Of a stretch of DNA of 18,202 nt, positions 1,255-18,202 are shown one piece after another (the stretch's first letter is position 1; every line of letters begins with the position of its first letter). Source of the DNA: a virus (lineage: Duplodnaviria; Heunggongvirae; Uroviricota; Caudoviricetes); the IMG/VR virus record IMGVR_UViG_2617270976_000013, positions 1 to 18,202 of that record; one strand, given 5' to 3'. The position numbers and the translations under genes were made by a program. The notes under the pieces are model-generated. The model did no database searches and was not told where the DNA came from. It was given only the letters and a program-made list of their open reading frames with translations.

Positions 1255-1260
1255 ATAAAA

Positions 1261-1323
1261 CCGGGTGATGCAAAAGTAGCCATTTGATTCACAAGGCCAT
1301 TGACGCATCGCCCGGTTAGTTTT
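1261..1323 (+). terminator. putative proA terminator stem-loop
   Basis: Inverted repeat ccgggtgatgc (1261-1271) / gcatcgcccgg (1305-1315), one G-U position, followed by ttagtttt. The loop is long, so this is not a textbook terminator. Confidence 0.4.
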
Positions 1324-1368
1324 AACCTTGTCCACCGTGATTCACGTTCGTGAACATGTCCTTTCAGG

Positions 1369-1444
1369 GCCGATATAGCTCAGTTGGTAGAGCAGCGCAT
1401 TCGTAATGCGAAGGTCGTAGGTTCGACTCCTATTATCGGCACCA
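1369..1444 (+). tRNA. thrW: tRNA-Thr (anticodon CGU)
   Basis: 76-nt sequence GCCGATATAGCTCAGTTGGTAGAGCAGCGCATTCGTAATGCG...GGTTCGACTCCTATTATCGGCACCA with cloverleaf features, CGT anticodon in the loop and 3' CCA; located immediately after proA as in E. coli. Confidence 0.9.
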
Positions 1445-1458
1445 TTTAAATCAATAAG

Positions 1459-2622: not shown

Positions 2623-2849
2623 TTTCTTTCCTCTGTTATGCCATCACCCGCGCTCACCTGGACAGTATGCAGCGGAGACTGAAGCGCCGCAATGCAGGCT
2701 TGCCGTGTTGTGAGGTAAGGATATTTTGGCTTGGTTGGATCTTTACGTGTTGCCTGTAGGCGGCCTGTTCGTATCCAGTTGGTGGCGGTTGGTCTGGATA
2801 TCTTAAGAAACTGACAGGCCTCATCGAGTGTGAGGCTGTATGATTCCAT
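2499..2849 (-). CDS. xis: excisionase, P22-type
   Basis: 116-aa product starting [31 protein letters not shown], an HTH-type excisionase; overlaps the int 5' end; SD GAGGT 5 nt upstream of the ATG at 2849. The ORF track start at 2879 was rejected in favour of this ATG. Confidence 0.8.
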
Positions 2850-3099
2850 GGTTACCTCTGCTTTTTGAACGCATGTCACGTAACTTCTTAATGTGTTCTG
2901 CCGTTTCGATCTCTTCTGCTATCCGATCTGCATCAGCTTTATTCACAGGTTCAAAGTCATGATTAAAGCGGAACATGCTGGCGATACATGTTCTGCCTTT
3001 TCGGATGTAGTGAACTTTGTTGTGGGTAGAACGCAGGATTTTGCAGGGAGTGCCGTGGTGGTCGACGTACCAGGTGTTAGGAAAAATGATTCTGAACAT
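2821..3099 (-). CDS. hypothetical phage protein (92 aa)
   Basis: ORF with SD GAGGTG about 7 nt upstream of the ATG at 3099; no family recognised. Confidence 0.5.
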   Translation of the reverse strand: MFRIIFPNTWYVDHHGTPCKILRSTHNKVHYIRKGRTCIASMFRFNHDFEPVNKADADRIAEEIETAEHIKKLRDMRSKSRGNHGIIQPHTR

Positions 3100-3146
3100 T
3101 TTTACACCTCAGTTGGACGATGTTGAAATTTGCTGCTTTGAGGCCA

Positions 3147-3365
3147 TCACAGTCCCCATTGTTTGTTCTTAAGTTCGATCTCCTCCTGGCAACTTGCACA
3201 AGTCCGACAACCCTGAACAGCCAGGCGTCTTCGCTCATCTATCGGATCGCCACACTCACAACAATGAGTTGCGGATACAGTCTGGTAGTTCAGACGACGC
3301 ATTTTTATTGCTGTATTGCGCTGTAATTCTTCGATTTCTGATGCTGAATCAATGATGTCTGCCAT
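3147..3365 (-). CDS. TraR/DksA-family C4-type zinc-finger protein
   Basis: 72-aa product with CCECGDPIDERRRLAVQGCRTCASC, a four-cysteine zinc finger of TraR/DksA type; SD GGAAG upstream. Confidence 0.8.
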   Translation of the reverse strand: MADIIDSASEIEELQRNTAIKMRRLNYQTVSATHCCECGDPIDERRRLAVQGCRTCASCQEEIELKNKQWGL

Positions 3366-3414
3366 CTTCCATTAATCCCTGAATTGTTGGTTAATACGCT
3401 TGAGGATGAATGCG

Positions 3415-3441
3415 AACAATAAAAAAGGAGCCTGTAGCTCC
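3415..3441 (-). terminator. putative intrinsic terminator (minus strand)
   Basis: Hairpin ggagc-ctgta-gctcc (3427-3441); on the minus strand it is followed directly by a T6 run (plus-strand aaaaaa 3421-3426). Confidence 0.4.
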
Positions 3442-3463
3442 CTGATGATTTTGCTTTTCATGT

Positions 3464-3679
3464 TCACCGTTCCTTAAAGACGCCGTTTAACATGCCGATC
3501 ACCAGGCTTAAATGAGTCGGTGTGAATCCCATCAGCGTTACCGTTTCGCGGTGCTTCTTTAGTACGCTACGGCAAATGTCATTGACGTTTTTATCCGGAA
3601 ACTGCTGTCTGGCTTTTTTGATTTCATAATTAGCCTGACGGGCAATGCTGCGAAGGGCGTTATTATGTTCTATTGTCAT
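3464..3679 (-). CDS. hypothetical protein (71 aa), translationally coupled downstream of the 250-aa gene
   Basis: ATG at 3679 with GAGG about 5 nt upstream, 8 nt after the stop of the 250-aa ORF; product MTIEHNNALRSIARQANYEIKKARQ..., no family recognised. The ORF track extends it to 3817 but that overlaps the upstream gene. Confidence 0.5.
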   Translation of the reverse strand: MTIEHNNALRSIARQANYEIKKARQQFPDKNVNDICRSVLKKHRETVTLMGFTPTHLSLVIGMLNGVFKER

Positions 3680-3686
3680 ATTGGCC

Positions 3687-4439
3687 TCACACTTCGAATG
3701 CCAGTTGAGGGGTAAAGACGTCCCGTTCAGCGTTGTAATTAAGTGAACTGGCACTGTTGAATGATTCAATGCGTTCCACAAGAACTTGCGTACGGGTTTC
3801 TTTACTTGCGGGAGCATATGGCGAACCTACCCAGGATTTGTCGATGCCTATATTTCTTGCGACGTTCGTGCTGTCTGCAGACGAAAGCGGTACATGAGTA
3901 AAAATGTCTTTATTTAACATCCGTAACCCATGAATCTTGGTGATTGGGTAGCCGTACTGATCTACAACATGACGTATAAGATCGCGTAGTTTAGCCCGAC
4001 ACGCTCTCGGTCGTTTTGCATCGTATTCCCCCATCGAGCCGATGCAGACGCGGGGAAACTCATGGCACAGACGAATAAATCGCTCATCTGGTTCGTTCAT
4101 GTGCCACACCGGAGCACCAATAAATTTACCGTGAGGCCATGCCGCAATCAGGGCGTCATTCTCTTCACTGGTTCCGCCGATAACATCCGGGATAACCGCG
4201 AATGAGAAACGAGGGTGATTACCCCAGCGTTCAACAAATCTGTAATATTCATTCCAGTCTATGGCCTTGTTTTTTGTCCAGAATGTGAATGCACCATTAT
4301 CAAGAGCAAATGATTGGGTGACTTCGGAAGCCAGATCAATCTGAGCTGGATTAGCAAAACTGATGAATGCGTGTCTGCCTTTCCAGGCTTTCAACGCACA
4401 GGTATCGGGAGTTATTGGACCACCGTGAAAATGAATCAT
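3687..4439 (-). CDS. 250-aa protein with TGT-superfamily (tRNA-guanine transglycosylase-like) motifs; candidate DpdA-type 7-deazaguanine DNA transglycosylase
   Basis: Ordered motifs resembling bacterial Tgt: LDNGAF (46-51) vs TDSGGFQ, AVIPDVIGG (81-89), CIGSMG (132-137) vs VGGL, KDIFTHVP (177-184) vs IDMFDCVMP, TNVARN (191-196) vs TRNARN. No CxCxxC zinc site. The ORF itself is secure; the family call is from a by-eye alignment. Confidence 0.5.
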   Translation of the reverse strand: MIHFHGGPITPDTCALKAWKGRHAFISFANPAQIDLASEVTQSFALDNGAFTFWTKNKAIDWNEYYRFVERWGNHPRFSFAVIPDVIGGTSEENDALIAAWPHGKFIGAPVWHMNEPDERFIRLCHEFPRVCIGSMGEYDAKRPRACRAKLRDLIRHVVDQYGYPITKIHGLRMLNKDIFTHVPLSSADSTNVARNIGIDKSWVGSPYAPASKETRTQVLVERIESFNSASSLNYNAERDVFTPQLAFEV

Positions 4440-4594
4440 ACACTCTCCCGTTTATTATTTATCTCCTCAGCCAGCCGCTGGGCTTTCAGCGGATTTCGGA
4501 TAACAGAAAGGCCGGGAAATACCCAGCCTCGCTTTGTAACGGAGTAGACGAAAGTGATCGCGCCTACCCGGATATTATCGTGAGGATGCTTCAT
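4436..4594 (-). CDS. small protein (52 aa), lambda orf60a-like position immediately downstream of exo
   Basis: ATG overlaps the exo stop (ATGA) and its stop overlaps the ATG of the 250-aa gene (ATGA); product [52 protein letters not shown]. Below the ORF track length cutoff. Confidence 0.5.
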
Positions 4595-5271
4595 CGCCAT
4601 TGCTCCCCAAATACAAAACCAATTTCAGCCAGTGCCACGTCCATTTTTTCGATGAACTCCGGCACCATCTCGTCAAAATTCGCCATGTACTTTTCATTCC
4701 GCTCAATCACGACATAATGCAGTCCTTCACGCTTCATCCGCGGGTCATAGTTGGCAAAGTACCAGGCATCTTTTCGTGTCACCCACATGCTGTACTGCAC
4801 CTGGGCCATGTAAGCCGATTTTATGGCCTCGAAACCACCGAGCCGGAACTTCATGAAATCCCGGGAGGTAAACGGGCATTTCAGCTCAAGGCCATTGCCG
4901 TCACTGCATAAACCATCGGGAGAGCAGGCGGTGCGCATACTTTCGTCGCGATAGATGATCGGGGATTCAATAACATTTACGCCGGAAGTGAACTCAAACA
5001 CGGTTCTGGCGTCGTTCTCGTACTGTTTTCCCCAGGCCAGCGCTTTAGCGTTAACTTCCGGAGCCACACCGGTGCAAACCTCAGCCAGCAGGGTGTGGAA
5101 GTAGGACATTTTCATGTCAGGCCACTTCTTTCCTGATCGGGGCTTTGCTATCACGTTGTGAACTTCTGAAGCGGTGATGACGCCGAGCCGTAATTTGTGC
5201 CATGCATCATCCCCCTGTTCGACAGCTCTCACGTCGATCCCGGTACGCTGCAGGATAATGTCCGGTGTCAT
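4591..5271 (-). CDS. exo: lambda-type 5'-3' exonuclease (Red alpha)
   Basis: 226-aa product [40 protein letters not shown]... matches lambda Exo along its length; ATGA overlap with bet. Confidence 0.95.
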
Positions 5272-6053
5272 GCTGCCACCTTCTGCTCAGTGGCTTTCTG
5301 TTTCAGGAATCCAAGAGCTTTCACTGCTTCGGCCTGTGTCAGTTCTGACGATGCGCGAATGTCGCGGCGAAATATCTGGGAACAGAGCGGCAATAAGTCG
5401 TCATCCCATGTTTTATCCAGGGCGATCAGCAGAGTGTTAATCTCCTGCATGGTTTCATCGTTAACCGGAGTGATGTCGCGTTCTGGCTGACGTTCTGCAG
5501 TGTATGCTGTATTTTCGACAATGCGCTCGGCTTCATCCTTGTCATAGATACCAGCAAATCCGAAGGCCAGACGGGCACACTGAATCATGGCTTTATGCCG
5601 TAACATCCGTTTGGGATGCGACTGCCACGGCCCCGTGATTTCTCTGCCTTCGCGGGTTTTGAATGGTTCGCGGCGGCATTCATCCATCCATTCGGTAACG
5701 CAGATCGGATGATTACGGTCCTTGCGGTAAATCCGGCATGTACAGGATTCATTGTCCTGCTCAAAGTCCATGCCATCAAACTGCTGGTTTTCATTGATGA
5801 TGCGGGACCAGCCATCAACGCCCACCACCGGAACAATGCCGTTCTGCTTATCAGGGAAGGCGTAAATTTCTTTCGTCCACGGATTAAGGCCGTACTGGTT
5901 GGCGACGATCAACAATGCGATGAACTGCGCATCGCTGGCATCACCTTTAAATGCCGTCTGGCGAAGAGTGGTGATCAGTTCCTGTGGGTCGACAGAATCC
6001 ATGCCGACACGTTCAGCCAGCTTCCCTGCCAGCGTTGCGAGTGCTGTACTCAT
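5268..6053 (-). CDS. bet: lambda-type single-strand annealing protein (Red beta)
   Basis: 261-aa product [66 protein letters not shown]... matches lambda Bet. Confidence 0.95.
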
Positions 6054-6058
6054 CCGTT

Positions 6059-6355
6059 TTATACCTCTGAATCAATATCAAACTGGTGGTGAGCAATGGT
6101 TTCAACCATGTACCGGATGTGTTCTGCCATGCGCTCCTGAAACTCAACATCGTCATCAAACGCACGGGTAATGGCTTTTTTGCTGGCCCCGCAGCGTTGC
6201 AAATGATCGATACAGAGTGATTCAAACAGGTGCTGTGGAAGACCTTTTTCCATGTCGTCTGCCAGTTCTGCCTCTTTCTCTTCACGGGCGATCTGCTGGT
6301 AGTGACGTGCCCAGCTCTGAGCCTCAAGACGATCCTGAATGTAATAAGCGTTCAT
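6059..6355 (-). CDS. gam: RecBCD inhibitor Gam (short, GamS-like form)
   Basis: 98-aa product [47 protein letters not shown]... matches lambda Gam; SD AGGAG 8 nt upstream. The in-frame upstream extension has a stop and no ATG. Confidence 0.9.
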
Positions 6356-6431
6356 GGCTGAACTCCTGAAAATGGCTGTGAAAATATCGCCTGCGAAATG
6401 CCAGGCTGATTAGGAAAACAGGAAAGGGGGG

Positions 6432-6590
6432 TTAGTGATTCAGGCCGTTACCGCGTCCGTCGAGAAAAACTTCCACGAGCAAATCACGGGTATAAGTGCG
6501 CTCGATGCCGCGATGCAGATATAGCCGTCCGCGTAAATTAGCTGATGCAGTCCAGGTACCATCTTTGTGTTTGACCAGCATTCCTGGCAT
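6432..6590 (-). CDS. small ORF (52 aa) in the kil/cIII position, function unknown
   Basis: ATG at 6590 preceded by GAGGTG (5-nt spacer); product MPGMLVKHKDGTWTASANLRGRLYLHRGIERTYTRDLLVEVFLDGRGNGLNH; below the ORF track cutoff. Overlapping alternative ORFs exist in other frames. Confidence 0.35.
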   Translation of the reverse strand: MPGMLVKHKDGTWTASANLRGRLYLHRGIERTYTRDLLVEVFLDGRGNGLNH

Positions 6591-6899
6591 GACCGCACCT
6601 CAATTAACGGTCTGCATTCCGTAATGTTGATGAACCATAAAAACTCCTGCCCGTAAGCTGGGCTGCTGAACATATAGAGACTTCTGCGCGTATTCAGGCG
6701 GTGGATGGCCGCCGGTTGTCATAACTAAGCCGCCTCGTTGAAGCGACTGAGGTATGAAATGTTGAGTTAATTTCAGCTGGTCACACCGACGTTCACGCGT
6801 CCGTTTCACCCCTCGCACTCCCCGAAGCCTGCTGAAATTCAAACTGCGGATCTAAGCGGTCATCGCAACGGTGAATCAGGTAGTTGCCGTATCGTTGTG

Positions 6900-6990
6900 T
6901 TGTTGCGATGAACTTATTTAAAACTACAGTTGTTTTATCGTCAACAACAAAAGTTGTTTTATTGGTTGTTTTAGATATAACTGGTTGTAT
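6900..6990 (-). promoter_or_regulatory. putative leftward early promoter and operator array (pL/OL-like)
   Basis: Minus strand reads TTGACG, 17 nt, TTAAAT; overlapping repeats of TAAAACAAC/GTTGTTTT in direct and inverted orientation (plus strand agttgttttatcgtcaacaacaaaagttgttttattggttgtttta). Confidence 0.4.
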
Positions 6991-7085
6991 TTAGGATGGA
7001 TTTATTTTGTGACTTGAATCGCATAGCGATAACTGAAGCGAGGTTATGGTGGTTTTTTTAACGGTGTGTGTGATGAGGGGGGGGG

Positions 7086-7113
7086 CAAAAGAAAACCCGG
7101 CACGGTGACCGGG
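7086..7113 (-). terminator. putative intrinsic terminator downstream of the repressor gene (minus strand)
   Basis: GC stem cccgg (7096-7100) / ccggg (7109-7113) with an 8-nt loop; on the minus strand followed by TTTTCTTTT and then a C9 tract (plus-strand G9 at 7077-7085). Confidence 0.4.
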
Positions 7114-7234
7114 ATTCTTACGCCGTTAGGTAAAGATATTATTGCGGTGGCTTAATATTACTACCTAGAGCAAAGATAGGAATTAGTTCTTTACTGAATG
7201 AGCACAATGCCCAGTTGATAATTTTTAATTGGTA

Positions 7235-7924
7235 CTACCCATGCTTCCTATATGTCTGCGGCATGCTCCCAATAACCTTACCGAAGATGAACACCCGGTT
7301 CATCTCGTCTTTCTCGATCGGGTCCCACGGTGAGTAGCTTTTGTTATCAGAGATGACCAGCAGCTTATCCTTCATCATTTGCAGGCGCTTTACATGGGCT
7401 GTGTCGTCGTACAGAAACGCATAGATACCATCACCGTCGAAAGATTTAACTGTGATATCAACGAACAGCAGATCACCTGGTTCGATCGTTCCTGACATGC
7501 TGTCACCACGCACGTTAATGATGCGGATATTTTCCGCCTTCCTACCATCGAACATGTGACGAGCATCGTCAAACGAGTACTCAACCGAGCGTAGAACTTC
7601 TACAAACTCACGGTTGATGACTCCCGGCCCAGCACTGACTTCTATATCAAGAACGTCAATCTTGAAGTATTTGGAATGGCTGACAGTTGATTGTATTGGT
7701 TGCACTGTACTGTCTGACATATTTCCAACGCCAGAAGATAACCATTCTGCGCGCACACCCAAAGCGTTCGCGATCTCCACGATTTTAGTTGTTTGATTAG
7801 CTTTCCCTGTTTCGATTTTCTGAATAGCAGCCTGGCTAACCCCGACCAAATCCCCAAGCGCCTTTTGTGTAAGGCCTCGCGCTAATCTGGCTTCTTTAAG
7901 TCTTTCTGAGAGTGTTGTTTTCAT
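7235..7924 (-). CDS. cI: CI-like prophage repressor, HTH plus S24 (LexA-type) peptidase domain
   Basis: 229-aa product MKTTLSERLKEARLARGLTQKALGDLVGVSQAAIQKIETGK... with C-terminal GDSM and VKRL (Ser/Lys dyad context). Start chosen at ATG 7924 (not 7990) to leave a 105-bp operator region; no SD, consistent with a leaderless mRNA. Confidence 0.9.
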   Translation of the reverse strand: MKTTLSERLKEARLARGLTQKALGDLVGVSQAAIQKIETGKANQTTKIVEIANALGVRAEWLSSGVGNMSDSTVQPIQSTVSHSKYFKIDVLDIEVSAGPGVINREFVEVLRSVEYSFDDARHMFDGRKAENIRIINVRGDSMSGTIEPGDLLFVDITVKSFDGDGIYAFLYDDTAHVKRLQMMKDKLLVISDNKSYSPWDPIEKDEMNRVFIFGKVIGSMPQTYRKHG

Positions 7925-8028
7925 AGTCCAAATGTACAACCAAGGTTTTATTCCATCAAACGAAAATGGTTGTTGACTAAAAACAACCATGGTTTTAATC
8001 TTGATTCAAATTAACCACGGAGGTTGTT
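7925..8028. promoter_or_regulatory. divergent promoter/operator region (OR, pR, pRM-like)
   Basis: Three operator-like sites sharing AACCA/TGGTT half-sites (caaccaaggtttt, aaaatggttgttg, aaaacaaccatggtttt with perfect palindrome aaccatggtt). Rightward TTGACT (7973-7978) then TTTAAT; leftward TTGATG, 17 nt, TACATT ending about 7 nt before the repressor ATG. Confidence 0.55.
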
Positions 8029-8259
8029 ATGAACCCAGCTATCAAAACAGCGATCAATATCGTTGGTTCACAAAAGAAACTGGGCGCTGCTTGCGAAGTT
8101 TCACAGCAGGCCGTCTATAAGTGGCTTCACAACAAAGCAAAGGTATCCCCTGAACATGTCGGCAGCATTGTTACGGCTACTGGTGGAGTAGTGAAGGCAT
8201 ACCAGATTCGCCCGGATCTTCCGAAGTTGTTTCCACACACCGAAAAGAACGCAGCTTAA
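8029..8259 (+). CDS. cro: Cro-like HTH regulator (YdaS-like)
   Basis: 76-aa product MNPAIKTAINIVGSQKKLGAACEVSQQAVYKWLHNKAKVSPEH...; SD GGAGG 5 nt upstream; divergent from the repressor across the operator region. Confidence 0.85.
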   Translation: MNPAIKTAINIVGSQKKLGAACEVSQQAVYKWLHNKAKVSPEHVGSIVTATGGVVKAYQIRPDLPKLFPHTEKNAA

Positions 8260-8271
8260 ATTTCCATTTCA

Positions 8272-8284
8272 CGCTCTTTAACAA
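8272..8284 (+). promoter_or_regulatory. boxA-like element (nutR-equivalent position)
   Basis: CGCTCTTTAACAA, 12 nt after the cro stop, closely matching the boxA consensus (CGCTCTTTA / rrn TGCTCTTTAACAA); no convincing boxB hairpin follows. Confidence 0.5.
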
Positions 8285-8328
8285 TAAGCAATCAACTTAA
8301 CAGTCAATTCAAACTAAAGGAGTCAATT

Positions 8329-8868
8329 ATGCAACCACTTACATACCAACAGACTAGCGGATTTAGCCCGACTGCGGTGATAAATCGTTCTCAAACAAAA
8401 CAGGTGCCAGGCCACGAAAAGATCCGTGATGCCGTCCGCGCCTGGTCGGCTGTAGATAATCAGGATGTCGTTGCCACACTCATTGTGAATGAGTATCGGG
8501 AGCAGGGCGGCGGCACCATCGATTTCCCTGATGATGTCAGCCGTGCACGCCAGAAGCTGTTCCGCTTCCTCGATAACAAATTCGATTCTGAAAAATACCG
8601 AAATAACGTGCGTGAACTGACCCCGGCAATTCTGGCGGTACTACCGCTGGAATATCGCGGTTACCTGGTTGAGCAGGATAGCTTCATGGCTAGGTTGGCT
8701 GAAATGGAAAAGGAACTCAGTGAGGCAAAACAGGCTGTCATTCTCAACGCACCACGCCACCAGAAACTGAAGGAAATTAGTGAAGGTATTGTGTCGATGT
8801 TTCGTGTGGACCCAGATCTGGCTGGTCCATTGATGGCGATGGTTACTACCATGCTGGGGGCGATATGA
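8329..8868 (+). CDS. CII-position regulator, YdaT-family
   Basis: 179-aa product; segment ARQKLFRFLDNKFDSEKYRNNVRELTPAILAVLP resembles Rac YdaT ARNTQKIFRWVEKDTPDAVEKMQALLPAIEKSMP; strong SD AAGGAG; follows cro as cII does in lambda. Confidence 0.7.
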   Translation: MQPLTYQQTSGFSPTAVINRSQTKQVPGHEKIRDAVRAWSAVDNQDVVATLIVNEYREQGGGTIDFPDDVSRARQKLFRFLDNKFDSEKYRNNVRELTPAILAVLPLEYRGYLVEQDSFMARLAEMEKELSEAKQAVILNAPRHQKLKEISEGIVSMFRVDPDLAGPLMAMVTTMLGAI

Positions 8869-8954
8869 CAGGTTCAGAAATGGCGAAAGCCGGTCTGCTG
8901 GAACAGAACCGACTTTCAGGTGCAAACCGTAACACACTCATTGCGGGAGGAATT

Positions 8955-9560
8955 ATGGCAAACACTGCTGAGATATTCAATTTTCCAGTGCCGGATGTGG
9001 CACAAAAGGAGCCGCGCGTGGCAGATCTCGATGATGGTTATACGCGCATTGCAAATGAGTTGCTGGAAGCTGTGATGCTGGCCGGATTAACACAGCACCA
9101 GCTTCTGGTCTTCCTGGCTGTCATGCGCAAAACATATGGCTTTAATAAAAAACTGGATTGGGTGAGCAACGAGCAACTTTCCGAGTTGACCGGGATATTG
9201 CCGCACAAGTGTTCTGCTGCAAAAAGTGTTCTGGTAAAGCGTGGGATTTTTATTCAGAGCGGGCGGAATATCGGCATTAATAATGTGGTCAGTGAATGGT
9301 CAACATTACCCGAATCAGGTAAGAAAAATAAAGTTTACCTGAAAGAGGTAAATTTACCTGAATCAGGTAAGAAAAGTTTACCCAAATCAGGTAAAGACGT
9401 TTACCCGAATCAGGTAAACACAAAAGACAAACTAACAAAAGACAATATAAAACCTTTTTCGTCCGAGAATTTTGGCGAATCCTCTGACCAGCCAGAAAAC
9501 GATCTTCCTGTGGTGAAACCGGATGCTGCAATTCAGAGCGGCAGCAAGTGGGGGATCTGA
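8955..9560 (+). CDS. O: replication initiator, lambda O-like (N-terminal origin-binding domain)
   Basis: 201-aa product; VADLDDGYTRIANELLEA...LAVMRKTYGFNKK matches lambda O (VADLDDGYARLSNMLLEA...LRKTYGWNK); SD GGGAGG upstream of ATG 8955; contains iterons. Shorter than lambda O. Confidence 0.85.
   Translation: MANTAEIFNFPVPDVAQKEPRVADLDDGYTRIANELLEAVMLAGLTQHQLLVFLAVMRKTYGFNKKLDWVSNEQLSELTGILPHKCSAAKSVLVKRGIFIQSGRNIGINNVVSEWSTLPESGKKNKVYLKEVNLPESGKKSLPKSGKDVYPNQVNTKDKLTKDNIKPFSSENFGESSDQPENDLPVVKPDAAIQSGSKWGI
9306..9418. repeat. origin iterons (ori) inside the O gene
   Basis: Four to five copies of about 18 bp TTTACCYRAATCAGGTAA (starts near 9306, 9333 degenerate, 9353, 9377, 9400), each internally palindromic (ACCTGA-a-TCAGGT), followed by an AT-rich stretch (9418-9462). 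Confidence 0.7.
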
Positions 9561-9609
9561 ATGGAGCGTTAATGATGCAGCGGATATCATCAGGTGCCTA
9601 GTACGGGTG

Positions 9610-9861
9610 ATGGAGATCATCAAGCAGGATAGCCAGCAGAAAGAAGGTAATCAGGCATTAATGTTGAAACAGTACTTTGTTAATCTGCTAATAATGGAAC
9701 TGTACGAGGAAGTTCATAACGGTGATGCGGCTGATTCTGTTTTTAAAAGTACGGAACCTACACAAGTACTTGATAACTTATGGAGCAAATGGCAGGAGGC
9801 TATAGCTATTTTTGATATTTGGAATTACCCAGTTGCGACTGAGGAAGACTTGGCAGACTAA
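9610..9861 (+). CDS. hypothetical protein (84 aa) in the position normally occupied by a helicase loader
   Basis: ORF from ATG 9610 (MEIIKQDSQQKEGNQALMLKQYFVNLLIMELYEE...); no similarity to lambda P or DnaC recognised; start uncertain. Confidence 0.4.
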   Translation: MEIIKQDSQQKEGNQALMLKQYFVNLLIMELYEEVHNGDAADSVFKSTEPTQVLDNLWSKWQEAIAIFDIWNYPVATEEDLAD

Positions 9862-10055
9862 TTTTCAGCACATTTGATTTCCAATAATCAACCAGCCATA
9901 ATCATGCCATTGGAGCCTGAACAACTCCGGTGACTTCTGCGCTAAACGGGGACGTTTATGCGCACATACAATCCAACCTATCTTCTCCATTCACAGATGC
10001 AGAAATGCACCTGCGTTTTTTTGCATCCAACGTTTGACCTCTGCGGAGGTGAAGC

Positions 10056-10511
10056 GTGAACCTCCCACAAGACGGTATCAAATTGCATCGCGGTAACTTC
10101 ACCGCTATCGGTCAGCAGATCCAGTCTTATCTGGAGGACGGCAAATGCTTTCGCATGGTGCTTAAACCGTGGCGCGAAAGACGCAGTCTTTCCCAGAATG
10201 CACTCAGCCACATGTGGTACAGCGAAATCAGCGAGTACCTCATCAGCAGGGGGAAAACGTTCGCTACTGCAGTATGGGTAAAAGATGCACTCAAACACAC
10301 ATACCTCGGTTATGAAACCAAGGACTTGGTTGATGTCGTAACCGGCGAAATCACTACTATCCAGTCGTTACGCCATACCTCCGATCTTGATACCGGAGAG
10401 ATGTATGTCTTCCTGTGTAAGGTTGAAGCCTGGGCGATGAATATTGGCTGCCACCTGACTATTCCGCAGAGCTGCGAGTTCCAGCTGCTGCGCGACAAGC
10501 AGGAGGCGTAA
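10056..10511 (+). CDS. ninB: NinB/Orf-family recombination protein (YbcN-like)
   Basis: 151-aa product with [17 protein letters not shown] motif (lambda NinB RSLDQNRKLWACLGDVS); GTG start with GGAGG 6 nt upstream. Confidence 0.85.
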
Positions 10512-10681
10512 TGGCTACACCGCTTATTCGGGTCATGAACGGACACATCTACAGAGTACCAAATCGTCGTAAGCGTAAACCGGAGCTGAAGCCTTCCGAA
10601 ATACCAACACTGCTCGGATATACCGCCAGCCTGGTTGATAAAAAATGGTTGCGACTGGCAGCAAGGAGGAATCATGGCTGA
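10511..10681 (+). CDS. ninE: NinE-like small protein
   Basis: 56-aa product [56 protein letters not shown]; SD AGGAGG; TAATG overlap with ninB; below the ORF track cutoff. Confidence 0.65.
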   Translation: MATPLIRVMNGHIYRVPNRRKRKPELKPSEIPTLLGYTASLVDKKWLRLAARRNHG

Positions 10682-10964
10682 TTTGAGAAAAGCAGCGCGT
10701 AGTCGGGAATGCCAGGTAAGAATCCCTGGCGTATGTAATGGCAACCCTGAAACGTCTGTACTGGCACATATCCGGCTGACTGGATTGTGCGGCACCGGTA
10801 CCAAACCGCCAGACCTGATTGCCACCATTGCATGTTCTGCCTGCCACGACGAAATCGACCGCCGCACACATTTTGTCGATGCTGCATATGCAAAAGAATG
10901 CGCGCTGGAAGGTATGGCGAGAACACAGGTTATCTGGCTGAAAGAGGGGGTTATTAAGGCGTGA
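10674..10964 (+). CDS. YbcO-like cysteine-rich protein (DUF1364-type)
   Basis: 96-aa product [34 protein letters not shown]...[11 protein letters not shown] with conserved Cys/His; SD AGGAGGA; same order (ninB-like, ninE, ybcO, rusA) as in the DLP12 prophage. Confidence 0.75.
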
Positions 10965-11323
10965 ATACCTACAGCATCACATTACCCTGGCCTCCGAGCA
11001 ATAATCGCTATTACCGCCATAATCGCGGGCGCACGCACGTCAGCGCAGAGGGGCAGGCATACCGCGATAACGTCGCCCGAATCATTAAAAACGCAATGCT
11101 GGATATCGGCCTGGCTATGCCTGTGAAAATCCGCATTGAGTGCCACATGCCGGATCGCCGTCGCCGTGACCTGGATAATCTGCAAAAAGCCGCTTTTGAC
11201 GCACTCACTAAAGCAGGTTTCTGGCTGGATGATGCTCAGGTCGTTGATTACCGTGTTGTGAAGATGCCTGTTACCAAAGGTGGGAGGCTGGAACTGACCA
11301 TCACCGAAATGGGGAATGAATGA
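10961..11323 (+). CDS. rusA: Holliday junction resolvase RusA
   Basis: 120-aa product [74 protein letters not shown]... closely matches E. coli RusA; GTGA overlap with the upstream gene. Confidence 0.9.
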
Positions 11324-11460
11324 TGTTTGAGTTTTATATGGCAGAACTTCTTCGCCACCGCTGGGGGCATCTGCGCTTATATCGTTTCCCCGGTTCTGTT
11401 TTGACCGATTACCGAATACTGAAGAATTACGCCAAAACCCTGACAGGAGCAGGAGTATGA
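11320..11460 (+). CDS. ylcG: YlcG-like small protein
   Basis: 46-aa product [46 protein letters not shown]; ATGA overlap with the rusA stop. Confidence 0.65.
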
Positions 11461-11545
11461 AGCCAGAGATAACAATCAACTAATACTGTTTTATTGATTT
11501 TTGCTTGTAATTGGCGTTCTGGTCTGATTTTTGTGGAGTAAGTTG

Positions 11546-11929
11546 ATGCGTGATATTCAGATGGTTCTTGAGCGTTGGGGAGCGTGGGCGGCTAATAATC
11601 ATGAAGATGTGACCTGGTCGTCCATTGCCGCCGGTTTTAAGGGATTAATTCCTTCAAAAGTAAAATCTCGCCCGCAATGTTGTGACGATGACGCGATAAT
11701 CATTTGCGGGTGCATGGCCCGTCTGAAAAAGAACAACAGCGATTTGCACGATTTATTAGTAGATTATTATGTAGTCGGTATGACATTCATGTCACTGGCA
11801 GGTAAGCATTGCTGCTCTGATGGTTATATCGGGAAAAGGTTACAGAAGGCTGAGGGTATAATTGAAGGGATGTTAATGGCATTAGATATCCGGTTAGAGA
11901 TGGATATCGTTGTTAATAACTCTAATTAA
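11546..11929 (+). CDS. late-gene antitermination protein Q (QuuD-like)
   Basis: 127-aa product [60 protein letters not shown]... with the Cys cluster of Q-family antiterminators; SD GGAG upstream. Confidence 0.9.
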
Positions 11930-11941
11930 TATGCCAATTGT

Positions 11942-11970
11942 TTACTAAAAATTATTAAAAATGGGGCGTT
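11942..11970 (-). terminator. putative intrinsic terminator for the porin gene (minus strand)
   Basis: Stem ggggcg / cgcccc with loop ttgaga (11953-11970); on the minus strand followed by ATTTTTAATAAT. Confidence 0.45.
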
Positions 11971-12117
11971 GAGACGCCCCCAAAAATAAAGGGTAATATA
12001 TAACAGAAGGTTTATATAGTTAGAAGCAAGTTTGTGCTCATAAAGGAAGTGGTTTGAGGGAGCCATTTATATGTGGGGGAGGAAAAGCCCCCCGCAACAT
12101 ATCTTTTAGTAATCAAA

Positions 12118-13200
12118 TTAGAACTGGTAAACCATACCTACAGCAACGATATCATCGGTAGCAACGCCAGATGCTTTCGTGAAATCGCTCTTATCAATCA
12201 GGTTGATTTTGTAATCAACAAAAGTGGACATATTTTTGTTGAAGTAATAGGTTGCACCTACATCAATATATTCAACCAGGTCCTGATCACCCCACGCACC
12301 CAAGTCTTTTCCTTTAGATTGCAGGTAAGCAACGGACGGACGCAGACCGAAGTCGAACTGATATTGTGCAACTACTTCGAAGTTTTGTGCTTTGTTGGCA
12401 ATATGGTTATTACCAAAAACAGTCATGTTCTGGGTTTCAGAATAGGTGGTAGCCAGATAGATGTTGTTCGCATCATATTTCAGACCAGCTGCCCATACTT
12501 CAGCATTTTGACCAGATGCATTCAGGCTGTTGTTACCGTAGATAACCTGATTATTAGTGCGGTCAGATTTAGCATAGGTTGCACCTACACCGAATCCTTC
12601 ATACTCATAAGTAGTGGAGAAACCGAAACCATCACCATTAGCTTCAGTTACGTCAGTGCGGTCATTTTTACCCTGATACTGAGCAGCAAAGTTCAGACCA
12701 TCAACCAGACCAAAGAAGTCATTGTTACGATAAGTTGCAACACCTGTGGTGCGACCAGTCATGAATACATCTGTTTGGGTCCAGGTATCGCCACCGAATT
12801 CTGGCAGAACGTCGGTCCATGCACCAATATCGTATGCTACACCGTAGTTACGGCCATAATCGATGGAGCCGTAGTCACCGAATTTCAGGCCAGCGAAGGC
12901 AAGACGGGTTTTATCTTTGGAGGAACCTTGAGATTCAGCGCGGTTGCCTTTGAATTCATATTCCCACTGACCGAAACCAGTCAGTTGATCGTTGATTTGG
13001 GTTTCACCTTTGAAGCCAAGACGGGCATAAGTAGTATCACCATCATCTGCATCATTAGAGGAGAAGTAGTGCTTAGCATTAACTTTCCCGTACAGATCCA
13101 GCTTGTTACTGTCTTTATTATAAATTTCAGCTGCCTGAGCAGACATCGCCATCAGTACTGATGCAGTTACAGCAGAAATTGCCACTGTTAATTTTTTCAT
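12118..13200 (-). CDS. OmpC/NmpC-family outer-membrane porin (prophage moron)
   Basis: 360-aa product with signal peptide [23 protein letters not shown], Gly/Tyr/Asn-rich beta-barrel composition and C-terminal F (..VGMVYQF); lies between Q and the lysis genes in opposite orientation, as nmpC does in DLP12. Confidence 0.9.
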
Positions 13201-13626
13201 CGTGAGCCCTTTTTTTGAACTATTATTAAAAAATGATGTCACTGCGCGATAAATATTCATCTAATCAATGTGATTATTTCAAGATGTAAGTTTTGGTTTC
13301 TCATTTGATTTGTGAAGTAGATCTCTATTTTTATCTGAACTTTTTCTATCGAATCCTATTCATGGCTCTTGGCTGAATAAAAATAAATCTATTAGCCAAT
13401 TTATATTAATGGCTGTTATTTATAAGTGCTCTATAATTTGAAGGTTCAATTTAAATCGGCTAAAAATAACGCTGGAAATTATTTGTTGGTTATTTGTTGA
13501 GATTTGCTTATGTATTTGTAGTGGTGTTTTCAATACTCGGTAGCATTCTCGCAAATATCATTTAGTGGTTTACGTACGTAAAAAATTGGTTATGCTGTTA
13601 AGAGTGGTTACTTCGTCACACAGCTT

Positions 13627-13659
13627 AAACCCGCCGTCGAGCGGGTTTTTCCATTTTTT
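13627..13659 (+). terminator. intrinsic terminator upstream of the lysis cassette
   Basis: Stem aaacccgc / gcgggttt with loop cgtcga, followed by tttttccatttttt on the plus strand, about 110 nt before the holin start. Confidence 0.5.
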
Positions 13660-13771
13660 GAGTCTCGATATTAGCTGATAACCCAATACCTGAGTTATTC
13701 ACTGACTCCGAGTCTGTTACGTTTCGTAGTATTCCCTCAATTTACACCCGCTTTGTCTGCGAGGTGGGGTT

Positions 13772-13987
13772 ATGAAATCCATGGATAAGTTAACAACGGG
13801 TGTCGCCTATGGCACCTCAGCAGGTAGTGCCGGGTACTGGTTTTTACAGCTGCTAGATAAAGTCACGCCCTCACAGTGGGCGGCAATTGGAGTGCTGGGT
13901 AGCCTGGTATTTGGCCTGCTGACGTACCTGACAAACCTTTATTTCAAGATTAAAGAAGATAAGCGCAAGGCTGCGAGAGGTGAATAA
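13772..13987 (+). CDS. S: class II holin (phage 21 S-type pinholin) with dual-start motif
   Basis: 71-aa product [71 protein letters not shown]; two TM helices; Met1 and Met4 (MKSM); SD GAGGTGGGG. Confidence 0.9.
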
Positions 13988-14484
13988 TGCCTCCATCATT
14001 ACGAAAAGCCGTTGCTGCTGCTATTGGTGGCGGAGCAATTGCTATAGCATCAGTGTTAATTACTGGCCCAAGTGGTAACGATGGTCTGGAAGGTGTCAGC
14101 TACATACCATACAAAGATATTGTTGGTGTATGGACTGTATGTCACGGGCATACAGGAAAAGACATCATGCTCGGTAAAACGTATACCAAAGCAGAATGCA
14201 AAGCCCTCCTGAATAAAGACCTTGCCACGGTCGCCAGACAAATTAACCCGTACATAAAAGTTGATATACCGGAAACAACGCGCGGCGCTCTTTACTCGTT
14301 CGTTTACAACGTGGGCGCTGGCAATTTCAGAACATCGACGCTTCTTCGCAAAATAAACCAGGGCGATATCAAAGGCGCATGTGATCAGCTACGTCGCTGG
14401 ACATATGCTGGCGGTAAGCAATGGAAAGGTCTCATGACTCGTCGTGAGATTGAGCGTGAAATCTGTTTGTGGGGTCAGCAATGA
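13987..14484 (+). CDS. R: SAR endolysin (T4-lysozyme-like muramidase with signal-anchor-release domain)
   Basis: 165-aa product; N-terminal Gly/Ala-rich weakly hydrophobic segment [18 protein letters not shown] followed by a Glu, Asp, Thr catalytic spacing ([15 protein letters not shown]); TAATG overlap with the holin. Confidence 0.9.
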
Positions 14485-14941
14485 ACAGAGTAACCGCGAT
14501 TATCTCCGCTCTGGTTATCTGCATCATCGTCTGCCTGTCATGGGCTGTTAATCATTACCGTGATAACGCCATTACCTACAAAGCCCAGCGCGACAAAAAT
14601 GCCAGAGAACTGAAGCTGGCGAACGCGGCAATTACTGACATGCAGATGCGCCAGCGTGATGTTGCTGCACTGGATGAAAAATACACGAAGGAGTTAGCTA
14701 ATGCGAAAGCTGAAAATGATGCTCTGCGTGATGATGTTGCCGCTGGTCGTCGTCGGTTGCACATCAAAGCAGTCTGTCAGTCAGTGCGTGAAGCCACCAC
14801 CGCCTCCGGCGTGGATAATGCAGCCTCACCCGACTGGCAGACACCGCTGAACGGGATTATTTCACCCTCAGAGAGAGGCTGATCACTATGCAAAAACAAC
14901 TGGAAGGAACCCAGAAGTATATTAATGAGCAGTGCAGATAG
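14481..14941 (+). pseudogene. Rz: Rz (i-spanin) disrupted by a -1 frameshift
   Basis: N-terminal about 113 aa ([45 protein letters not shown]...) is lambda Rz-like, but the frame runs into ...[19 protein letters not shown] (the Rz1 C-terminus) and stops at 14882; the lambda Rz C-terminus [31 protein letters not shown] is in another frame ending at 14941. Confidence 0.7.
14701..14850 (+). pseudogene. Rz1: Rz1 (o-spanin lipoprotein), C-terminally altered by the same frameshift
   Basis: Embedded [52 protein letters not shown] (49 aa) with lipobox VVVGC; lambda Rz1 continues ...[21 protein letters not shown] (60 aa), sequence that here sits in the Rz frame. Confidence 0.6.
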
Positions 14942-14972
14942 AGCTGCCCATATCGATGGGCAACTCATGCAA

Positions 14973-15266
14973 TTATTGTGAGCAATACACACGCGCTTCC
15001 AGCGGAGTATAAATGCCTAAAGTAATAAAACCGAGCAATCCATTTACGAATGTTTGCTGGGTTTCTGTTTTAACAACATTTTCTGCGCCGCCACAAATTT
15101 TGGCTGCATCAACAGTTTTCTCCTGTCCAATTCCCGAAACGAAGAAATGATGGGTGATGGTTTCCTTTGGTGTTACTGCTGTCGGTTTGTTTCCAACAGT
15201 AAACGTCTGTTGAGCACATCCTGTAATAAGCATTGCCAGAGCGGCAGAAAACAACATTTTTTTCAT
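14973..15266 (-). CDS. bor: Bor lipoprotein (serum-resistance moron)
   Basis: 97-aa product MKKMLFSAALAMLITGCAQQTFTVGNKPTAVTPKETITHHFFVSGIGQEKTVDAAKICGGAENVVKTETQQTFVNGLLGFITLGIYTPLEARVYCSQ with lipobox LITGC; matches lambda Bor. Confidence 0.9.
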   Translation of the reverse strand: MKKMLFSAALAMLITGCAQQTFTVGNKPTAVTPKETITHHFFVSGIGQEKTVDAAKICGGAENVVKTETQQTFVNGLLGFITLGIYTPLEARVYCSQ

Positions 15267-15446
15267 CTTATTATCCTGCATTGTTAAAAACGGCAGAATC
15301 CTATGTGACAACAATTAAACGATAGTTAAATGGATTGATGAAAATTAAAACTATATAGGTGTACGGTCAGACTATTGGAGGTAGTCAGGATTTGAATGTC
15401 AGTCTGTTGTCGGCATTCTGGCAATGCAATTTGGATAAAGCGGGGA

Positions 15447-15569
15447 TTAAAAAGATAGAGGCGAGCCGGTCAGGTAGAAATGAATCAGGCTCAAAGTGAA
15501 GCGGAAAAGGTCTGTGGCACAAGCTGATGCAGCCATAATTACAGCCTGATGATTTGTGGAATGAAACAT
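15447..15569 (-). CDS. candidate small hydrophobic ORF (40 aa), unverified
   Basis: ATG at 15569 preceded by GGAGG with a 6-nt spacer; product MFHSTNHQAVIMAASACATDLFRFTLSLIHFYLTGSPLSF; no homolog recognised. Confidence 0.25.
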   Translation of the reverse strand: MFHSTNHQAVIMAASACATDLFRFTLSLIHFYLTGSPLSF

Positions 15570-15649
15570 GTTGAACCTCCTTAATTGATGTTATTCGAGT
15601 GATGAAGGCATTCTGTCCTTCTATAGTGTCCAGTAAATCAAACAGGAAA

Positions 15650-15705
15650 CTTGTCCAACGTGTTGGACAAGCCTCTCCATTAGTGAGTTGTATTGATCAC
15701 AACTC
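15650..15705. repeat. pair of inverted repeats of unknown function
   Basis: cttgtccaac-gt-gttggacaag (15650-15671, perfect 10-bp arms) and gagttgt-attgatc-acaactc (15685-15705, 7-bp arms); lie between bor and the tail-module remnant with no flanking T-run. Confidence 0.6.
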
Positions 15706-15808
15706 TACAAAGAATTCATTACTGGGTAGATGAAAATAGTTTCACGATGAATGGAGGAGGCTATGTCGGTGGCTTCTTCATTGGAGTATCCGCGAATGCC
15801 TGCAATGG

Positions 15809-15964
15809 ATGATTGATGACGGCGTGGTGTCCCGTATTGATCTGGATATCCGCCGCACCGGGATTAATGAACTGGGTAACAGTATCACTCTCTGGCGTCG
15901 TGACGGACCGGTAATGATTTCTTTTGATGATCTGTGGAGTGCGATAACGCATGGCGGACAGTGA
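15809..15964 (+). pseudogene. truncated ORF overlapping the J start, possibly the 3' remnant of an upstream baseplate gene
   Basis: Open frame from the stop at 15737 to 15964 encoding ...MIDDGVVSRIDLDIRRTGINELGNSITLWRRDGPVMISFDDLWSAITHGGQ; overlaps J by 14 nt as upstream baseplate genes often do; no SD or N-terminal domain. Confidence 0.3.
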
Positions 15965-16871
15965 ATTTCAGCGCCCGACGCTGGCAGAAAATATCAGTAT
16001 GCTCCGTAACGATTTATTCGCCAGGCTGGACGTCAGCGACACGCTCCGGCGCATGGATGAAGACGTGCGGGCAAAGGTGTATGCGGCGGCGCTGCATACG
16101 GTTTACGGTTACATCGATTATCTGGCAATGAACATGCTGCCTGACCTGTGCGATGAGTCCTGGCTGGCGCGACATGCTGCGATGAAACGGTGTCCGCGCA
16201 AGGGGGCCACGGCTGCCAGCGGGTATATGCGCTGGGAAGGTGTCAGCGATGGCCTGAAGGTGACTGCCGGGAGTGTTATTCAGCGCGATGACCTGGTTCA
16301 GTACACGGCAACTGCCGATGCAACCAGCTCCGGTGGTGTCCTGCGCGTGCCGATCGCCTGCTCAAGTGCAGGCGCGGTCGGTAACGCTGACGACGGTACG
16401 TCATTAATCCTGGTCACGCCGGTGAATGGTCTGCCGTCTTCCGGCGTGGCAGACACTCTGACAGGTGGATTTGATACTGAAGAGCTGGAAACGTGGCGCG
16501 CCCGCGTCATTGAGCGGTATTACTGGACGCCTCAGGGCGGGGCTGACGGGGACTATGTTGTCTGGGCTAAAGAAGTGCCAGGCATTACCCGTGCATGGAC
16601 ATACCGCCACTGGATGGGAACGGGGACTGTCGGTGTGATGATTGCCAGCAGTGACCTGATTAATCCCATTCCGGAAGAATCAACGGAAACGGCGGCAAGA
16701 CAACACATTGAGCCACTGGCCCCGGTGGCAGGCTCTGATTTGTATGTATTCAGGCCGGTGGCGCATAAAGTGGATTTTCATATCCGCGTGACGCCGGACA
16801 CACTGGAAATACGGGCTGCCATCACCGCCGAGTTGCGTTCGTTCCTGCTGCGTGATGGTTATCCGGAGTAA
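15951..16871 (+). CDS. baseplate assembly protein J-like (P2 gpJ family)
   Basis: 306-aa product MADSEFQRPTLAENISMLRNDLFARLDVSDTLRRMDEDVRAKVYAAALHTVYGYIDYLAMNMLPDL... recognised as the P2 J / e14 JayE baseplate family. Confidence 0.8.
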   Translation: MADSEFQRPTLAENISMLRNDLFARLDVSDTLRRMDEDVRAKVYAAALHTVYGYIDYLAMNMLPDLCDESWLARHAAMKRCPRKGATAASGYMRWEGVSDGLKVTAGSVIQRDDLVQYTATADATSSGGVLRVPIACSSAGAVGNADDGTSLILVTPVNGLPSSGVADTLTGGFDTEELETWRARVIERYYWTPQGGADGDYVVWAKEVPGITRAWTYRHWMGTGTVGVMIASSDLINPIPEESTETAARQHIEPLAPVAGSDLYVFRPVAHKVDFHIRVTPDTLEIRAAITAELRSFLLRDGYPE

Positions 16872-17095
16872 TCCATGCATCGTATAGATACGAAAGACAG
16901 CTATTAATTAATCAGGCCAACGAATACATGAACAGTAAACAATGGCCCGGTAAAACCGCTATTGGTCGTCTGAAAGGCGAGGAACTGGCGCAATATAATT
17001 CGTGGCTGGATTATCTGGACGCACTGGAGCTGGTTGATACCTCCAGTGTGCCAGATATTGAATGGCCTACGCCTCCGGCAGTTCAGGCCAGATGA
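16872..17095 (+). pseudogene. tail fibre assembly protein remnant (C-terminal part only)
   Basis: Frame open from the J stop encodes ...ERQLLINQANEYMNSKQWPGKTAIGRLKGEELAQYNSWLDYLDALELVDTSSVPDIEWPTPPAVQAR, the conserved C-terminal region of Tfa chaperones, with no N-terminal domain; converges on and overlaps the complete tfa on the other strand. Confidence 0.5.
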
Positions 17096-17669
17096 CATCA
17101 GGCGCGGTGCTGGTATCAGTTGCCGTCACCGCGTCAATGTAATCCAGCACAGCGTTAAGGCTGGTTGTTTCTGCCTGCGTCAGTTTACGTCCGGCCTGCA
17201 ATTTCAGCTGAATCAGACTGATTGAAGCCATTGCAGTATCAATCAGTGACTGGCGCTGTGCTTCTGCTGCATCTACTGCGGCGCTATGCTGTGCTTCGGT
17301 ATCCGTCACCCATTTCTCACCATCCCATTTATCGTATGGCGTTAACGGGGCGATAGTGGTTGTATTATCAGGGTAATCACCCGGAGCTGTGATTTCTTTT
17401 GACTCTCCCGTTTTGGTGCTATAGACGATTTCACCGCGATGGTCTGGCACATATTCCCATGAGTTAAAATTTGCAGAACGACAGATAGCATAACCCGCCT
17501 TATGTGTGCCAGGGGCATCTAAACAGGAATATGCAGGAATACCGACACCAATGGCAAGATATTCAGTTGATGCTGAAATATATTCCTGCGTCTCACTATC
17601 ATAGTTATAAACGGTAATATCCCCCGACTTTGTAGCAATAAGCTCACTATTTAATATTGCTTTATCCAT
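17067..17669 (-). CDS. tfa: tail fibre assembly protein (Tfa chaperone)
   Basis: 200-aa product ending ...QSLIDTAMASISLIQLKLQAGRKLTQAETTSLNAVLDYIDAVTATDTSTAPDVIWPELPEA, the characteristic Tfa C-terminus; start overlaps the stop of the upstream tail-fibre ORF (TAATG). Confidence 0.85.
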   Translation of the reverse strand: MDKAILNSELIATKSGDITVYNYDSETQEYISASTEYLAIGVGIPAYSCLDAPGTHKAGYAICRSANFNSWEYVPDHRGEIVYSTKTGESKEITAPGDYPDNTTTIAPLTPYDKWDGEKWVTDTEAQHSAAVDAAEAQRQSLIDTAMASISLIQLKLQAGRKLTQAETTSLNAVLDYIDAVTATDTSTAPDVIWPELPEA

Positions 17670-18202
17670 TATGCTGCTCTCACGATATAGTTAAATGCAA
17701 TGTTTCGAGGGCGATTCTCTGATGCTGTTGGTACAACCCTGGATGCATCAAAACTGAATCCTGTGTAAGGGGTATTTTTTGTTTCATATGTGCCTAGGTT
17801 ATTATAGATATTTCGCGTAGCTTGAGATGCTAAGGCAAAAGCACCAGTACCAGTCTGTAACCTGAAAGTTGCTGTATCAATGGTGCCTTTAACTTCATTT
17901 ATAAATCCTGTTATATTCCGAATGGTATCTCCCTGTGACGAAAGCAAGCTACGGTTAGTATCAATCCCTCTTCCATCATCCCAGCCACGAATAAACTCAC
18001 CGCGTAAATCAGGCAATTTATTTGTCGGGTAAACCTTTGCCAGTTCCGGGTATTCTTCAGCAGAAAAAGCCGCCCCGTTGCATTTCAGCCAGCCTGTTGG
18101 CGGAGTGGCGGAAGGCCACGGAACAGGCACGCCAACGGGTAATGCCGAACCTTCTCCCAAACCAACGTTTATGAAAATGCAGAAATAACGAGCAAATGGC
18201 AT
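17669..18202 (-). CDS. tail fibre protein, C-terminal (variable) segment with tail-collar domain
   Basis: 177-aa product containing LPDLRGEFIRGWDDGRGIDTNRSL (tail-collar signature); only 177 aa, so it cannot be a whole fibre; the ATG sits at the last bases of the window. Confidence 0.75.
   Translation of the reverse strand: MPFARYFCIFINVGLGEGSALPVGVPVPWPSATPPTGWLKCNGAAFSAEEYPELAKVYPTNKLPDLRGEFIRGWDDGRGIDTNRSLLSSQGDTIRNITGFINEVKGTIDTATFRLQTGTGAFALASQATRNIYNNLGTYETKNTPYTGFSFDASRVVPTASENRPRNIAFNYIVRAA
18152..18177. other. candidate DNA-invertase crossover site (hix/gix/pix-like)
   Basis: TTCTCCCAAACCAACGTTTATGAAAA: 26 bp, imperfect dyad around an AAACC-AA-CGTTT core; resembles hixL (TTCTTGAAAACCAAGGTTTTTGATAA) recalled from memory; lies within the 5' end of the tail-fibre segment. 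Confidence 0.5.

Follow-up and report, generated by a model that had tools for sequence, protein, structure and literature searches.

A one-base deletion in a shared C-rich segment probably made a pseudogene pair of the nested spanin genes Rz and Rz1 in a defective lambdoid prophage

The nested spanin genes Rz and Rz1 of a defective lambdoid prophage appear to be a pseudogene pair, produced by a one-base deletion in a C-rich segment that is common to both genes, and the probability that this reading is correct and the deletion real is put at about 0.8. The prophage lies in the window, by which we mean the whole stretch of 18,202 nucleotides analysed (positions 1 to 18,202 of IMG/VR record IMGVR_UViG_2617270976_000013). 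Its spanin region (14481-14941) corresponds to the rzpD/Rz gene and measures 461 nt, as opposed to 462 nt in intact alleles. Alignment of the 461-nt gene with those of lambda (NC_001416), the DLP12 prophage of BL21(DE3) and phage mEp332, each of 462 nt, resolves a single gap with no compensating change, with GCAGCCT-CCCCCC-GACTGG in the intact genes and GCAGCCT-CACCC-GACTGG in the window; against the BL21 DLP12 rzpD, 459/461 bases match. An initial annotation, made from the sequence alone, had claimed that one nucleotide is missing in the C-rich stretch around 14820-14832 to the detriment of both genes and had proposed alignment with lambda and phage 21; the alignment above, with lambda, DLP12 and mEp332, places the one-base gap in the window and, together with the division of Pfam matches described below, bears the claim out. 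The same annotation gave lambda a longer C run. This is correct, in that lambda carries six Cs (C6), and needs refinement, in that a C>A substitution at 14828 accompanies the deletion in the window and the difference is therefore more than one of length; no C run longer than three is left at the site. Because Rz1 is encoded wholly inside Rz in another frame, a single indel shifts both frames at once. That the DNA itself lacks the base is an inference. The features that bear on this reading are collected in Table 1.

Table 1 Features of the spanin locus and of the surrounding prophage, in window coordinates
Feature	Position	Strand	Description
Left prophage end	1369-2622		tRNA-Thr (CGT) 1369-1444 (+), integrase gene 1459-2622 (-), directly downstream of proA (1-1254)
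Replication-module replacement	9556-9873		318 bp in place of ~3.77 kb of G1/2 (O C-terminus, P, ren, several small genes)
Holin essD (phage 21-type S)	13772-13987	+	Intact, 71 aa; Pfam PF04971; protein identical to those of BL21 DLP12 and G1/2
Endolysin rrrD	13987-14484	+	Intact, 165 aa; Pfam PF00959; protein identical to that of BL21 DLP12
Frameshifted i-spanin gene rzpD/Rz	14481-14882	+	Rz 1-117 (TMD, CC1, linker) plus 16 Rz1-frame residues, 133 aa; TGA 14880-14882
Truncated o-spanin gene rzoD/Rz1, nested in Rz	14701-14850	+	49 aa, normally 60; TGA 14848-14850
Lesion	14827-14831	+	CACCC vs CCCCCC in intact alleles: one base short, plus C>A at 14828
Orphaned Rz C-terminal coding remnant	14831-14941	+	Rz 118-153 (CC2, C-terminal domain with Cys152), out of frame with the Rz start
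bor/iss serum-resistance lipoprotein gene	14973-15266	-	Intact, 97 aa; Pfam PF06291; 0 aa differences from BL21 and G1/2
Junction of 15,607-bp internal deletion	15787-15788		BLAST and annotation against the intact G1/2 prophage

How is the homology to Rz and Rz1 distributed around this gap? Three frames each hold a conserved piece, and on this point translations and Pfam matches agree with the initial annotation throughout. The first frame begins as the Rz N-terminus at 14481 and ends, at the stop codon closing at 14882, as the C-terminus of lambda Rz1: residues 1-117 are identical to DLP12 RzpD at 117/117 positions and to lambda Rz at 114/117, and residues 118-133 are lambda Rz1 residues 45-60 (16/16). 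The same switch is seen in the domain matches of this frame, where Phage_lysis (PF03245, model positions 1-90 of 126, E 5e-35) is followed by Rz1 (PF06085, positions 24-40 of 41). The second frame, from the ATG at 14701, follows Rz1 to residue 42 (42/42 identical to DLP12 Rz1, 41/42 to lambda Rz1; PF06085 positions 1-25 of 41, E 2e-9), then reads HPTGRHR and stops early at 14850, giving a 49-aa product that retains the signal peptide, the lipobox (VVGC, Cys20), Cys29 and the PPPPP motif. The third frame, open from 14819 to the TAG at 14941, holds the missing Rz C-terminus, which ends in INEQCR, is identical to lambda Rz 118-153 at 36/36 positions and completes the Phage_lysis model (PF03245 positions 91-126 of 126, E 1e-13). 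This frame split of the Rz/Rz1 homology is far above chance level. The PF03245 and PF06085 homology and the order essD-rrrD-Rz, downstream of holin and endolysin, are those of an embedded two-component spanin. Neither subunit is complete: an i-spanin is an ORF of ~153 aa with an N-terminal TMD, both CC1 and CC2 and a C-terminal domain, and this ORF ends at 133 aa; an o-spanin is a lipoprotein with a lipobox Cys, whose mature domain extends to residue 54 or further, and here the Rz1 sequence is lost after residue 42 and the product ends at 49.

Mutational work on lambda allows for a prediction of what these truncations would mean for lysis. Nonsense mutations across the periplasmic domain of lambda Rz are lysis-defective, as are site-directed stops at codons 151 and 152, and the second coiled coil region CC2 comprises residues 121-150, the end of which contacts Rz1 (PMC5295617). 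In lambda Rz1 the sensitive positions are W46, L50 and I54; the nonsense allele W46X is lysis-defective, and only truncations at residue 55 or later are tolerated (PMC5295617). The deletion in the window would remove residues 118-153 from Rz, and with them CC2 and the Rz1-contacting C-terminal domain, and would append the final 16 residues of Rz1 in their place. Rz1 would be wild-type only to residue 42 and would end at 49 aa, with W46, L50 and I54 lost. Because the lambda truncation limits (Rz 151/152; Rz1 55) are not reached, both subunits are predicted to be null, native sequence ending at Rz 117 and Rz1 42, too early for a functional product. The 16 Rz1-derived residues at the end of the Rz fragment cannot make up for what is missing. 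Expression of the cassette should still kill the cell, with holin and endolysin permeabilising the inner membrane and degrading the wall; the outer-membrane step would fail, leaving spherical cells and no lysis under outer-membrane-stabilising conditions.

A fundamental question is whether the missing base belongs to the strain or to its assembly. The window is contained exactly, CACCC included, in contig JNQT01000010.1 (128.8 kb) of E. coli 2_316_03_S4_C2, and the exact 133-aa product of the Rz frame is deposited as KDY21292.1 (E. coli 2-316-03_S4_C2). The isolate is a commensal of a Tanzanian infant, of ST10 and phylogroup A (PMC6222053, methods and Table S1), and its genome is a draft from 100-bp Illumina HiSeq 2000 reads assembled with MaSuRCA (PMC6222053). 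The draft assembly consists of 210 contigs.

The most serious rival to a real deletion is that the strain carries an intact 462-nt Rz/Rz1 and that the draft consensus dropped a C, for example through reads from a second Rz paralogue, in which case the site (14800-14860) would read TCCCCCCG or TCCACCCG. CACCC is indeed private to a single 210-contig draft assembly, and intact alleles have C6 here, a classic spot for indel errors; however, the source platform is Illumina HiSeq, the consensus of which seldom miscalls short homopolymers, and relative to the DLP12-type haplotype of the window both an indel and a substitution are needed, a pattern unlike that of a homopolymer error. Error-laden assemblies do show a -1 allele at this position, among them ET201 and a locus with several split phage genes (L012). 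Between 14706 and 14941, a single C is all that separates the window from the intact CCACCC allele of MEI003, but that allele sits on a different haplotype with 13 other differences. A further point in favour of an artefact comes from the independent Logan assembly of SRR1186598, in which a contig located through the neighbouring baseplate-J fragment matches 14846-17079 at 100% identity, the bor-baseplate junction included, and starts 18 nt past the lesion. The break at 14846, inside Rz, suggests that the genome holds a second Rz-like copy, one matching the window just left of ~14876, by which an assembler could in principle be confused; set against this, the source contig runs unbroken for 128.8 kb through the prophage. 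The initial annotation had itself named a homopolymer sequencing error as the alternative to gene inactivation. That alternative is weakened by the Illumina source, by the substitution that breaks the C run and by a nearest allele that is a C5 (CCCCC) pseudogene recurring in other strains, and we regard it as unlikely.

Errors of this kind do bear on how the alleles of other genomes are counted. ET201 (NZ_CP100994.1) is labelled complete, yet many of its prophage genes within 28 kb carry frameshift flags that are probably long-read homopolymer errors, for which reason C5 alleles should be counted at face value only with caution; some C5 calls in "complete" genomes, such as that of ET201, are clearly assembly errors.

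With that caution, allele counts were made with 61-63-nt queries against 5,426 complete E. coli genomes. The window allele CACCC (-1) was found in 0/5,426 of them by 61-nt megablast, and its exact 34-nt pattern was found 0 times in GTDB representative genomes, IMG/VR and JGI metagenomes. The C5 allele, likewise -1, accounts for 40 of the 4,281 matching complete E. coli records (<1%), in backgrounds as unrelated as O26, O145, O157 and ETEC O6:H16, among others. C7 (+1) occurs in 3 records of ~4,300 and intact CCACCC in one (MEI003), and the majority of the remainder, ~3,600 records, carry the intact C6 allele. C5 is also present in four phage records, namely two from one lambda field isolate together with PhiR30_1 and PhiR63_2; the C5-bearing deposited phages (OR974322.1, PV340558.1, PV340574.1) are either spanin-null phages that were propagated or sequencing errors. 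In all four C5 records inspected (F9792, 2011EL-1370-2, TW10598 and UID2309220031), RefSeq labels the gene "rzpD, frameshifted". The initial annotation had allowed that intact homologues might share this frame structure, and these 4/4 E. coli records are instead recorded as frameshifted pseudogenes.

A look-up of the exact 133-aa protein returned 14 contigs, 13 of which read CCCCC at the DNA level, the source alone reading CACCC. The 133-aa product cannot separate the -1 alleles, as TCA and TCC both encode Ser; the 49-aa product of the Rz1 frame does discriminate between them and was absent from the protein collection searched. At the nucleotide level the window gene is separated by 1 nt from a DLP12-type C5 pseudogene allele that several ETEC chromosomes carry, by 2 changes from intact DLP12 and by 14 from MEI003. 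It belongs to the known class of C5 rzpD pseudogenes, in which a 461-nt gene has lost one base in the T-C6-G tract, as a variant that reads CACCC rather than the CCCCC of the others. Judged from these distances, the simplest history would be that the C5 frameshift was inherited and the C>A came later, when the gene was dead already, although the two changes may have come the other way round or together in one complex event. Descent from the MEI003 allele CCACCC by loss of one C was considered and rejected, for it fits 14706-14941 but leaves 13 other differences upstream, as compared with 1 for the DLP12-type C5 allele. The MEI003 gene (NZ_CP071263.1) is informative in its own right, since its intact rzpD reads CCT CCA CCC, with a C>A that is silent in Rz1 and gives P117T in Rz; the overlap evidently tolerates C>A, and the C6 run is broken there.

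The deletion also has to be seen in the context of the element that carries it. That this is a decaying prophage had been suggested at the outset, and comparison with the G1/2 prophage at the same site, which reveals losses of 15,607 bp and ~3.8 kb, strongly supports it. Integration is at thrW/proA. The G1/2 prophage is an e14/phiP27-like lambdoid prophage that shares this site and the early/late gene order, and it matches window positions 1-15788 at 96.8-98.8% identity in three blocks separated by two gaps. After iss, its order is HNH, P27-type terminase, portal, protease, capsid, sheath, tube, tape measure, baseplate, gp46, J/gp47, ymfQ, fibre, tfa and pinE. The 15,607-bp deletion in the window removes the HNH, terminase, portal, protease, capsid, tail sheath/tube, tape measure and baseplate genes to gp46 and joins 15788, ~520 bp past the bor start codon, to sequence just upstream of J/gp47. 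The baseplate J/gp47 ORF beyond the junction (15951-16871) is itself shortened, encoding 306 aa vs 352 aa in G1/2 and ET201, and next to the replaced replication module the O-like ORF (8865-9560) encodes 231 aa vs 339 aa in G1/2. Genes for replication, packaging and virion assembly are thus lost relative to G1/2, as in a defective (cryptic) prophage, and the element can neither replicate nor build virions. The comparison with the same prophage in a related strain that the initial annotation had proposed was made with G1/2, in which rzpD is intact at 462 nt. The spanin frameshift is one more lesion in a cryptic prophage and represents ordinary gene decay.

Several further features of the prophage are worth recording. 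Positions 3662-4436, between the integrase-proximal genes and exo, align with nothing in the prophages of G1/2 and ET201 (a BLAST gap) and are probably a mosaic replacement. The Q antiterminator gene (11546-11929) is separated from the lysis cassette by an intact OmpC/NmpC-like porin gene of 360 aa (12118-13200, -); at the equivalent position, DLP12 of BL21 has a porin gene disrupted by IS1. Although the surrounding prophage is most similar to that of G1/2, the Rz gene differs from its G1/2 counterpart at 10 positions and, being of the DLP12 haplotype, from that of BL21 by 2 changes. These sequence relationships suggest that lambdoid prophages have exchanged the lysis cassette in mosaic fashion. 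At the far end, 16928-18202 is the remnant of an invertible tail-fibre segment, with assembly genes at 16928-17095 (+) and 17067-17669 (-) and a Collar-domain fibre fragment at 17669-18202 (-). Beyond this remnant the source contig continues with a 42-aa invertase fragment and a GmrSD-type gene.

Could the loss of the base be something other than neutral decay? One hypothesis is that the C6 tract is a recurrent slippage hot-spot at which -1 alleles are favoured in resident prophages, as a one-step taming of a domesticated lysis cassette. Were this so, a single hit would remove the outer-membrane step of lysis and spare holin, endolysin and bor, and the extra C>A of the window would mark an older, fixed instance. 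We consider this decidedly improbable. A related proposal, that the tract serves as a phase-variation or hot-spot switch, was rejected, as the 40 C5 and 3 C7 alleles of ~4,300 records, some of them in error-ridden assemblies, are too rare and too noisy.

The weakest alternative is that the frame structure is functional, either because ribosomes that slip at the C-rich site still make some full-length Rz, for which the CCC-CCC context of C5 might conceivably let tRNA-Pro slip back one base and with which the -1 alleles in deposited phage genomes (PhiR30_1, PhiR63_2 and the lambda isolate) would be compatible, or because the Rz(1-117)-Rz1(45-60) fusion is itself active; it is scarcely credible, given that the A at 14828 interrupts the slippery run, that the arrangement is not conserved (the window allele is unique, and C5 makes up 40/4,281 against ~3,600 C6 records), that a fusion with neither an N-terminal lipobox nor CC2 cannot bridge to the outer membrane, that the Rz1 made from the same sequence is truncated before W46, and that viable phages with -1 alleles need no recoding, spanins being dispensable for plaque formation by lambda in ordinary laboratory media. 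Two specific forms were also set aside. A programmed frameshift or recoding site is contradicted by the broken slippery run at 14828 and by an allele that is private in the window and, as C5, present in <1% of records. A unimolecular spanin of the T1 gp11 type is a single polypeptide that begins with a lipoprotein signal and has a TMD at its C-terminal end (PMC5295617), and the 133-aa fusion has an N-terminal TMD with neither a lipobox nor a C-terminal TMD.

If the deletion is real, as we think probable, the locus should be annotated as an rzpD/rzoD pseudogene pair in a cryptic prophage and not as a gene for a "bacteriophage lysis family protein", and beyond correct annotation its importance is small. 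It provides a clear example of a known liability of nested genes, in which both subunits are lost to one indel. Lesions and assembly errors tend to recur at the C6 tract of the overlap, and awareness of this is useful in the curation of lambdoid lysis cassettes and wherever such cassettes are used to judge the remaining ability of a prophage to lyse its host.

Comparison with known systems places the locus as follows. The gene order is that of lambda Rz/Rz1 and DLP12 RzpD/RzoD, with holin, endolysin, Rz with nested Rz1, and bor in succession; unlike those loci, the window can encode neither a 153-aa Rz nor a 60-aa Rz1. Relative to the lysis-defective spanin mutants of lambda (Cahill et al. 2017, PMC5295617), both truncations would fall within the ranges that abolish lysis, that is, nonsense changes in the periplasmic part of Rz and stops at or before W46 in Rz1. 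Those mutants are engineered or selected alleles of single genes on plasmids, whereas the window has one natural indel that affects both genes and gives each an out-of-frame tail. The G1/2 prophage has the intact 462-nt rzpD, full O, P, ren and the 15.6 kb of packaging, head and tail genes, all of which the window is without. The closest likeness is to the C5 genes annotated as "rzpD, frameshifted", which share with the window a -1 change in the same tract, an identical 133-aa product and the DLP12-type haplotype elsewhere in the gene. The window differs from them in the A at 14828, which makes Rz1 residue 43 His and not Pro, and in location, its pseudogene lying in the thrW/proA prophage and the C5 pseudogenes at the DLP12 site. 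A pseudogenised embedded spanin pair is thus of a kind already recognised and annotated in databases, of which the window is a private nucleotide variant.
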